This document shows, piece after piece, positions 12,589 through 12,837 of a DNA stretch of 13,368 nucleotides. The notes under the pieces are model-generated. The model searched no databases. It was given only the letters and a program-made list of their open reading frames with translations, and was not told the DNA's origin. The stretch lies in the IMG/VR virus record IMGVR_UViG_2630968543_000001, one strand, 5' to 3'. The stretch's first letter is position 1, and every line of letters starts with the position of its first letter. Source of the stretch: a virus (lineage: Monodnaviria; Loebvirae; Hofneiviricota; Faserviricetes; Tubulavirales; Inoviridae). The position numbers and the translations under genes are program-made.

Positions 12589-12837
12589 ATGTCTGTAAAA
12601 AATAAGGCGCGTGACCGACTTCCCGGTGGCCGCCTTAAGTCTTATCGTCGTGTAGGTTCACATTTTGCCAGTTGTGCCAGATGGTTTGATAAATCGCCGT
12701 CCTGGTATCGCAATATGATGATGACCAGGCCTGAGCGCCGTGAAGTCAGAAGGCTTCTCAATCAGGTAATGCGTGGTCATGATGCTGACGGCATTGCTTT
12801 TCCGGTCAGTCATCGTCCGTTTGTTTATTGGTGGTGA
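12589..12837 (+). CDS. Hypothetical small basic protein (Arg/Lys-rich), function unknown
   Basis: ORF-track 82 aa. GAGGA lies 7 nt upstream of the ATG. The protein is highly basic with no TM segment. It sits after the secretin gene, where filamentous phages often carry accessory or regulatory genes. Confidence 0.45.
   Translation: MSVKNKARDRLPGGRLKSYRRVGSHFASCARWFDKSPSWYRNMMMTRPERREVRRLLNQVMRGHDADGIAFPVSHRPFVYWW

Follow-up and report, generated by a model that had tools for sequence, protein, structure and literature searches.

The window analyzed here is a 13,368-nucleotide (nt) stretch of inovirus DNA (IMG/VR record IMGVR_UViG_2630968543_000001) that carries a filamentous prophage of the YpfΦ/CUS-1 type. 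The subject of this report is an 82-amino acid (aa) open reading frame (ORF) that follows the secretin gene at the attR end of the prophage. The Shine-Dalgarno (SD) sequence of the 82-aa gene is locked in a conserved RNA hairpin, the other arm of which is formed by the Ile-Phe codons and UAG stop codon of a short upstream leader ORF. This architecture of leader plus ribosome binding site (RBS) hairpin is common to nearly all relatives of the gene. We consider it moderately probable that the two ORFs form a translation-status-gated cassette, arrest-peptide-like and dependent on release factor 1 (RF1), whose product probably binds RNA of the translation machinery. Regulation is the well supported part of this reading; the function of the protein we infer. 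The features involved are the following.

12518-12562, plus strand: unannotated 14-codon leader ORF, MALTFMGYEQYDIF-stop, a candidate regulatory or arrest peptide, with its UAG stop codon at 12560-12562.
12554-12583, plus strand: 12-bp RNA hairpin, with 5' arm 12554-12565 (ATCTTCTAGGTA), loop 12566-12571 and 3' arm 12572-12583 (TACTTAGAGGAT).
12578-12582, plus strand: SD sequence GAGGA of the 82-aa gene, 6 nt 5' of the ATG and within the 3' arm of the hairpin.
12589-12837, plus strand: gene for the 82-aa basic protein, orthologue of YPO2280a of YpfΦ (RefSeq WP_001399975.1), with ATG at 12589 and TGA at 12835-12837.

The first-pass annotation, made by a model from the letters of the window, credited the 82-aa gene with a strong SD. 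GAGGA is indeed found 6 nt before the ATG, but it is not free, being part of the 3' arm of the conserved 12-bp hairpin. The leader ORF and the SD-sequestering hairpin, the main feature of the region, were missed. The hairpin pairs the 3' end of the leader, including its UAG, with the RBS of the 82-aa gene, and it is part of the minimum free energy structure. The presumed stall position of a ribosome overlaps the structure that masks the SD, with the last two leader codons and the stop codon in the 5' arm and the SD in the 3' arm. Pairing was retained in 97.9% of cells in 12 sequences, compared with 41-58% when the pairing partners were slid. One G-C pair was altered on both sides in these sequences, with compensatory changes to A-U or U-A.

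The leader ORF is absent from the RefSeq annotation. Across genera, the 65 nt upstream of the 82-aa ORF show conservation in the manner of coding sequence. A leader of 13-14 codons ending in GYEQ[Y/Q/L]DIF-stop is present in all 12 YpfΦ-type loci, the C-terminus being otherwise invariant. Within the eight conserved codons of these leaders all six variable columns fall at third positions (0/0/6). A metagenome scan for type A, the group of relatives with the N-terminus MS[IV]KN..DR..G that includes the 82-aa protein, produced 70 distinct loci with sufficient upstream sequence. The leader M-x4-5-[G/H]-Y-x-x-L-D-I-F was present in 66/70 and ended 20-32 nt before the main ATG. Tyr(-7) was found in 62/66 leaders, Asp(-3) in 66/66, Ile(-2) in 65/66 and Phe/Leu(-1) in 66/66. 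C-terminal residues that appear to be conserved by selection at the peptide level are a property of arrest leader peptides, with the caveat here that the Ile-Phe codons also lie in the stem. In 65/65 type-A leaders analyzed, the region of the Phe codon and the A-site codon pairs with the SD region, using 52 distinct arm pairs (mean z -4.35). Among these predicted stems the 52 arm pairs amount to extensive covariation.

Leaders are not confined to type A. In the wider family an SD-preceded mini-ORF was identified in 31/49 distinct loci, compared with 7.4% of 754 control ORFs from the same loci. These mini-ORFs are often only ATG-NNN-TAG or ATG-TAG (1-3 codons) and end 19-29 nt before the main ATG. 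The leader stop region pairs with the main RBS at 0.61 versus 0.29 in geometry-matched controls (p ~1e-10). At least 12 different leader types display the same design. A terminator scan flagged the hairpin of the window as an intrinsic terminator. A translational role is favored because the stem is AU-rich, a leader ORF is present, the spacing is fixed, and pairing with the RBS extends across the family. Positions 12400-13368 matched no Rfam family.

The leaders show a strong bias in stop codon. TAG ends 30/31 wider-family leaders versus 11/56 controls, and the main ORFs of the family stop with TGA (20), TAA (16) or TAG (0). The codon after DIF in the 66 type-A leaders is TAG (25), CAG (23), TAA (7), TCG (3), CCG (3), TTG (2), TTA (2), TGG (1) or TGA (0). 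Where it is a sense codon the frame reads through the hairpin. Read-through by an amber suppressor to produce a fusion protein was rejected as a general mechanism for two reasons. The spacing from leader to ATG (19, 20, 22, 23, 26, 27 or 29 nt) keeps no constant frame, and only one tRNA array associated with the family (L047) has a tRNA with a CUA anticodon. Literature searches on UAG leaders returned no earlier description.

The leader might provide nothing but constitutive translational coupling. It would then be a portable 'ribosome loading pad' that senses nothing and secures expression in any transcript, be it a processed tRNA precursor or a long operon with the gene at its 3' end. Its residues would be conserved because of constraints on the RNA, or because the leader supplies a free acidic peptide as partner to the basic protein. 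Distant members do use minimal leaders of 1-3 codons with a strong SD1, the Ile-Phe codons double as the anti-SD arm, and no σ70-like promoter was predicted between the secretin gene pIV and the leader or 82-aa gene. What coupling leaves unexplained is the TAG in 30/31 leaders versus 0/36 main ORFs, the invariant Tyr(-7) and Asp(-3) that lie outside the stem with synonymous variation, and the fixed leader length of ~13 codons. We regard coupling alone as very unlikely.

The 82-aa ORF is a real gene under strong purifying selection. In 14 orthologues of identical length the ratio of nonsynonymous to synonymous substitution rates (dN/dS) in the sense frame is 0.12, with dS ~1.25, and variable columns are distributed 36/29/65 over the three codon positions. 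Both out-of-register sense frames have ratios >1. The antisense frames gave 0.28, 1.26 and 1.52, the first of which is in codon register with the sense frame and mirrors its constraint. An antisense ORF of 125 aa (12658-13035) that overlaps the gene was classified as spurious because stop codons interrupt every antisense frame in most relatives. RefSeq already lists the 82-aa ORF as a coding sequence for a hypothetical protein. With 14 Arg and 4 Lys against 6 Asp/Glu, a pI of 11.5 and a grand average of hydropathy (GRAVY) of -0.85, the product is as Arg/Lys-rich as the first reading held. It also lacks a hydrophobic segment, as claimed, since the highest 19-residue Kyte-Doolittle mean is only 0.21. 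By these two hydropathy values it is not a small hydrophobic membrane-active peptide of the type I toxin (hok/tisB) kind. A perfect 8-bp inverted repeat at 12837-12856, AATTTCGT-ACGC-ACGAAATT, shares one base with the stop codon; after it comes ACGCATAA, a sequence similar to the XerC arm of dif. Candidate roles for the repeat are terminator, attP component, and packaging or origin signal.

Enterobacterales contain 34 homologues, all of ~82 aa. Full-length homologues with 68-98% identity occur in Salmonella, Pantoea, Brenneria, Morganella, Xenorhabdus and Pectobacterium. In Xenorhabdus inoviruses the 82-aa protein is 65-70% identical, versus 46-49% for pIV, 42% for pI, 50-56% for pVI and 27-30% for pIII. 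The pII/pV module of the Xenorhabdus phages has no detectable relation to that of the window, despite an 82-aa protein that is up to 70% identical. Judged by these identities it is the most conserved protein of these inoviruses, the opposite of the poor conservation in related prophages that was to have discredited the original proposal. The expectation of an accessory gene after the secretin gene was borne out: the 82-aa gene is genuinely accessory and sits at the attR end of the filamentous prophage. In Pantoea piersonii (L003, 9929-10402) the leader and gene are intact 126 bp from dif and are all that is left of the phage beside ordinary chromosomal genes. In Xenorhabdus hominickii (L007, 9369-10249), a prophage remnant, the gene comes after a C-terminal secretin fragment and a GPA-type replication gene.

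A profile of YpfΦ-type sequences was searched against 1.84 billion representative proteins at E<=1e-3, which generated 153 clusters, all 50-146 aa in length. By this measure YPO2280a-like small basic proteins comprise a large uncurated family of at least 153 clusters. Family proteins always end with a common C-terminal module, P.WW-(5)-tRP.RR…L…G.D.D…fP…KPH.YYW-stop. The 82-aa protein has it as KSPSWYRN…TRPERRE…GHDADG..FPVSHRPFVYWW-stop, the core being KSPSWYRN-(3)-TRPERRE…G.DADG..FP…RPFVYWW-stop. P37, P48, R50 and P77 are conserved in at least 90% of 145 family sequences. The N-termini vary and are of type A, MANYKRKRPR or MSRTYR. Loci whose proteins begin MMNYKRKKSR… (L030, L032-L037, L039, on GC-rich contigs) have an in-frame upstream extension and a different upstream stem, GCAGGCATTCGCATGTCTGC, in place of the leader. 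The full-family alignment was too variable for the related-locus scan, and sub-alignments A4 and A5 were used.

Database searches placed the family nowhere. The 82-aa protein has no Pfam match at E<=0.1, the 145 family members matched no Pfam or PHROG family, and NCBIfam and PADLOC likewise offered nothing credible for either. The marginal match was phrog_12343 (E=1e-3, function unknown). A PADLOC match to JetB (E=0.004, 13.8 bits) is spurious, and the protein does not qualify as a defense protein. A PDB sequence search returned only a short and probably coincidental match to an N-terminal peptide of human U4/U6 snRNP Prp4, PDDLVAPVVKKPHIYY (6ah0_K residues 5-33, E ~0.01-0.09). The part of the family that resembles this peptide is the C-terminal motif DpDglvfPl.kKPHvYYw. 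An AlphaFold2 (AF2) model built from a deep alignment (pLDDT 77, pTM 0.50, with pLDDT >90 for residues ~40-70) predicts short helices followed by a long one that kinks at the invariant Pro48, and a tail that is aromatic and extended. No fold neighbor of the family protein model was found. High basicity and the Pro-kinked, Arg-rich helix of the model make nucleic acid binding plausible.

The first-pass annotation suggested, as an example, a regulator or packaging factor, taken here as an inovirus protein that binds single- or double-stranded phage DNA for transcription, replication or packaging. The protein is very basic, it is kept in all YpfΦ-like prophages, and its gene is at the 3' end of the assembly operon beside non-coding DNA containing the 8-bp inverted repeat. 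Sequence-family and fold searches, however, found neither a helix-turn-helix (HTH) or ribbon-helix-helix nor any other domain or fold of the DNA-binding kind. Unrelated tailed phages and their tRNA arrays contain homologues, as do integrase islands, and some homologues lie beside toxin-antitoxin (TA) modules. The gene persists intact where the phage genes are gone (L003), and the protein is 70% identical in Xenorhabdus phages that have different replication modules (pII/pV). The suggestion is left unsupported by these results, and we consider it quite unlikely.

The genomic company of the homologues is diverse. Distant members are found in integrase islands (L018, L021) and in phage-like runs of small ORFs (L020). 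The relatives L018 and L022 adjoin HicAB, HigBA and PIN modules, the L022 member being next to HicAB/HigBA and an insertion sequence. Other members lie within phage tRNA arrays: L024 (25 tRNAs), L025 (21), L047 (14), L048 (22), L051 (25), L052 (25), L053 (23), L055 (27) and L057 (28). Members in L031, L058 and L060 abut smaller tRNA sets. Within arrays the family gene is on the tRNA strand and is often the sole protein gene between the flanking tRNA genes. The leader starts ~20-110 nt past the preceding tRNA (~20-50 nt in most), and the next tRNA may begin only 2-7 nt past the gene's stop codon. On the T4-like contig L024, for example, the gene (2665-2913) sits between tRNA-Val and tRNA-Glu, and an HNH endonuclease, Acb1 (anti-CBASS) and the tRNA-repair pair RNA ligase 1 (Rnl1) and PNKP are encoded a few kb away. 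Literature searches on proteins inside tRNA arrays returned no earlier description. Suppressor-like tRNAs are present in two family-bearing arrays, one with anticodon CUA (amber; L047 187-260) and one with UCA (opal; L025 8843-8916, 'SeC' according to ARAGORN). Their presence beside UAG-terminated leaders is interesting but not general.

The 82-aa protein might itself be growth inhibitory, a toxin-like product with an addiction or abortive function that is nearly silenced by RBS occlusion, the leader being only a safety device or coupling element. Tightly repressed toxins such as hok/mok and tisB typically combine a sequestered RBS with an upstream reading frame that is obligatory. Gene and leader are intact in the dif-side prophage remnants L003 and L007, and TA loci adjoin the gene in L018 and L022. 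Against this, the protein has neither a hydrophobic segment nor a recognizable toxin domain, no cognate antitoxin gene or conserved antisense ORF was found, and a lone place inside the tRNA arrays of lytic phages fits an addiction module poorly. We think a toxin-like protein fairly unlikely.

The TA neighbors, together with the codons that follow DIF, could instead point to a sensor of ribosome-dependent A-site mRNA nucleases (RelE/HigB/YoeB-type toxins) combined with a counter-measure. A pause after DIF would expose UAG, CAG or UCG in an empty A site. A cut after the second nucleotide would remove the 5' arm of the hairpin and permanently unmask the SD. The basic protein would be produced precisely while such toxins act, and its role would be to protect translation, or restore it, on behalf of the mobile element. 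RelE cuts after nucleotide 2 of A-site stop codons (PMC5224514), and the observed codons (TAG 25, CAG 23, TAA 7, TCG 3, TGA 0) match its first-reported best substrates CAG, UCG and UAG and its preference for cutting before G. Relatives adjoin HicAB, HigBA and PIN modules (L018, L022), one shares its contig with Rnl1, PNKP and Acb1 (L024), and others are inside tRNA arrays. RelE specificity is nonetheless broad in vivo (PMC5224514). The codon spectrum is also partly structural, because position 1 has to be C/U to pair with the SD's first G and the UAG-CAG flip is a single transition that preserves the stem. Nothing supports counteraction of any toxin by the 82-aa protein, and a basic A-site binder would inhibit translation itself. 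We judge such a sensor unlikely.

We favor a reading in which YpfΦ/CUS-1 carries, at its attR (dif-proximal) end, a compact mobile cassette of two cistrons, with the 82-aa ORF as the effector. A ribosome that sits on the last leader codons, its P site holding Phe and its A site UAG (or CAG), would cover the 5' arm and free the SD. The 82-aa protein would be translated only during such occupancy, with an output proportional to dwell time. This dwell time is the likely point of regulation because the stop is almost exclusively UAG, which is read by RF1 only, and never UGA, and because Tyr(-7), Leu(-4), Asp(-3) and the penultimate Ile are conserved in a leader of fixed length. The leader would slow release in the manner of the nascent-chain arrest elements PepNL, TnaC and MsrDL, and the cassette would report the status of translation termination or of the A site. 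RF1 is ~100-fold sub-stoichiometric to ribosomes, and ribosomes held at an upstream stop codon can unwind a downstream initiation region (PMC5373646). The 14-aa leaders PepNL and NanCL have a critical penultimate Ile13 and arrest at their own stop codon (PMC11890864).

With lower confidence we infer that the product is a small RNA-binding protein that acts on tRNA or the ribosome, not an inovirus-specific DNA regulator. An RNA-binding factor is the better fit because of the strong basicity and the compact helix-plus-aromatic-tail model, because the gene is found in unrelated mobile elements and as the sole protein gene between tRNAs in several phage arrays, and because its expression appears coupled to termination or A-site status. 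Conservation beyond that of the phage morphogenesis proteins suggests a highly conserved host partner.

Several points weigh against the favored reading. Leader-peptide arrest, RF1 dependence and RNA binding are all predictions. The Ile-Phe codons AUC-UUC are the anti-SD arm, and their conservation could be an RNA-level constraint; by their position outside the predicted stem, only Tyr(-7), Leu(-4) and Asp(-3) argue unambiguously for peptide selection. RF1 is not a universal sensor, since a sense codon, mostly CAG, follows DIF in many type-A leaders. The leaders of distant relatives cannot act as arrest peptides because they have only 1-3 codons, and the MMNYKRK… subgroup (L030-L039) has no mini-ORF leader. 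The loci are phylogenetically related, and the p-values overstate their independence. The L040-46 group is tied to the family through an iterated profile only, the AF2 model has moderate confidence (pLDDT 77, pTM 0.50), and small ORFs in general are concentrated in the tRNA-array regions of large phages.

A bolder version of this reading is tentative and, taken as a whole, rather improbable. In it the cassette represents a new class of mobile 'translation-status sensor plus effector' whose conserved Y-x3-D-I-F peptide parks the ribosome on UAG or CAG. Dwell, set by RF1, by Gln-tRNA availability or by RelE-type A-site cleavage, would switch on a small, previously unrecognized RNA-binding protein through which phages, prophages and islands sustain or protect translation. 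If true, this would account for the location of the gene within phage tRNA arrays, and an unknown ORF of the plague-associated phage YpfΦ would receive its first function.

The rest of the window was consistent with an inovirus prophage. Its gene set, identified using Pfam and RefSeq, comprises an HTH repressor, pII, pV, coat proteins, pIII, pVI, a Zot-like pI and pIV, and the element is flanked by dif as expected of YpfΦ/CUS-1. Three further features are the following.

11256-12500, upstream of the 82-aa gene: secretin (pIV), matching Pfam PF00263 (E=1.3e-24), which agrees with the position after the secretin gene that had been assigned to the 82-aa ORF.
13034-13231, plus strand: YPO2281 homologue, 65 aa in RefSeq, phrog_6642, function unknown.
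4-18, start of the window: attL half-dif GGTGCGCATAATGTA (XerC arm plus central region).

In strain GN02323 (L001) the element adjoins the ydeNOPQRS region, and a complete, perfect attR dif (L001 15973-16000) begins 4 nt past the end of the window. With the attL half-dif at its start, the window therefore covers the prophage array from end to end. The same 15-nt half-site occurs at the tandem junctions of L001 and L002. The prophage was identified as YpfΦ/CUS-1 because the Y. pestis locus L002 encodes a protein 100% identical to the 82-aa protein within a phage that is 99-100% identical. By its position the 82-aa ORF is YPO2280a, the first of two attR-proximal ORFs. The 969 bp surrounding it were found in 119/5,426 complete E. 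coli genomes, mostly in tandem prophages, and blastn against 50,697 phage records gave zero matches. The YPO2281 homologue accompanies the 82-aa gene in E. coli, Yersinia and Klebsiella loci, in one Brenneria (L004) and in some Xenorhabdus (39-79% identity). It is not an obligatory partner, since it is missing from several other loci that have the gene.

Proximity to dif suggested an accessory factor for XerCD/dif recombination, functionally like XafT of TLCΦ, that controls integration or excision. In all 15 fetched loci with a recognizable dif, the site is downstream of the gene on the same strand, at ~126 bp (L003) to ~10 kb (L006), and the window itself runs from an attL half-site to just short of the attR dif. 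We downgraded the idea because the family is common outside dif elements, in tailed phages and tyrosine-integrase islands. The protein also has no DUF3653 HTH domain, as in XafT, or other Pfam domain at E<=0.1, and the operon-end place beside attP is held by unrelated cargo as well, for example ctxAB (PMC4266046). A Xer cofactor is highly improbable.

Two other properties of the window were observed. A perfect 3,867-bp stretch occurs at 1721-5587 and again at 5586-9452, an offset of 3,865 bp. This partial tandem duplication extends from the HTH repressor through the pII, pV and coat genes into pIII, and yields a truncated pIII (4350-5660, 436 aa) upstream of the full copy (8215-9927, 570 aa). 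A similar partial duplication is present in Klebsiella spallanzanii (L015), and full tandem copies are present in GN02323 (L001). The left-end cargo, on the minus strand at 104-370, 381-1175 and 1242-1664, differs from YPO2271/2272 of Y. pestis and encodes a DUF6953 protein, a 264-aa REase_DpnII-MboI-domain protein and a 140-aa protein (phrog_4174). The 264-aa protein matches PADLOC 'Aga_Helical-REase' (E=1e-34) and PDC-S35, and the cargo may be prophage defense cargo.

The ORF itself is already known. It has been annotated and named in the YpfΦ literature without a function, and a 2014 review states that both attR-proximal ORFs, which occupy the ctxAB place of CTXΦ, have 'no predictable functions' (PMC4266046). 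Our literature searches on YPO2280a found no description beyond that. What is new is the definition of the family, the status of the protein as the best conserved of the YpfΦ proteins, the unannotated leader with its covarying RBS hairpin and UAG bias, and the homologues in tRNA arrays. YPO2280a is among the four YpfΦ/CUS-1 ORFs whose unknown function has been named explicitly in the field as a problem worth solving. The third-pandemic lineage of Y. pestis carries YpfΦ as a stable integrant, and invasive E. coli K1 harbors CUS-1. With the Y-x3-D-I-F leader, comparative genomics would add a new candidate family of ribosome arrest peptides, and a protein gene within phage tRNA arrays points to an unrecognized player in the phage-host contest over translation. 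The hypothesis of leader and hairpin control is specific and cheaply testable.

Comparison with known systems begins with YPO2280a of Y. pestis YpfΦ, which has a homologue in the E. coli K1 prophage CUS-1. The protein is 100% identical and has the same place after the secretin YPO2280 and before YPO2281 and attR/dif. The literature lists the ORF only and does not describe the leader, the hairpin, the wider family or the tRNA-array homologues (PMC4266046). XafT is likewise an accessory protein encoded by a dif phage, to which the 82-aa protein has no homology. ArfA resembles it in kind, being small and basic with expression coupled to translation status, without homology. Some family members start with 'MSR.Y.H.KG', which prompted consideration of an ArfA relationship; it was rejected (hhalign probability 0.1%), and a PDB search matched no ArfA chains at E<=10.

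The type I toxins hok/mok and tisB share an occluded effector RBS and a dependence of translation on an upstream frame or standby site. The effector here differs in being hydrophilic and basic, not a membrane peptide, and no antisense RNA was evident. The lambda bar minigenes consist of an SD followed by AUG-AUA-UAA. Distant family members are similar in having a strong SD and then a tiny ORF (1-3 codons), but their mini-ORFs end with UAG and are built into the RBS-occluding hairpin of a downstream gene. In ErmCL/ermC and SecM/secA, a ribosome stalled on the leader melts a hairpin that sequesters the downstream SD. The same unmasking is proposed for the 82-aa gene, with no known inducer. The 14-codon leader is too short for force sensing, as it would lie wholly within the exit tunnel, and the hairpin differs from those of ErmCL and SecM in being a single stem whose 5' arm is the leader's own end.

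Further parallels are PepNL, NanCL (14 aa), TnaC, MsrDL and SpeFL, which like the present leader involve a 13-14-codon upstream ORF and conserved C-terminal residues, including a penultimate Ile. In PepNL/TnaC-type leaders the ribosome is positioned on the stop codon, as proposed here, and the downstream SD is in a stem-loop, as it is here. The link between UGA and its near-cognate Trp codon in PepNL is analogous to that between UAG and CAG-Gln in YPO2280a-family leaders. The two groups have no sequence similarity, and the stop is UGA (RF2) in one and UAG (RF1) in the other. Many YPO2280a relatives swap the stop for a sense codon, and arrest is suggested here by sequence. Control by leader peptide and hairpin is a known type of regulation, attached in this case to an uncharacterized family of mobile-element proteins.

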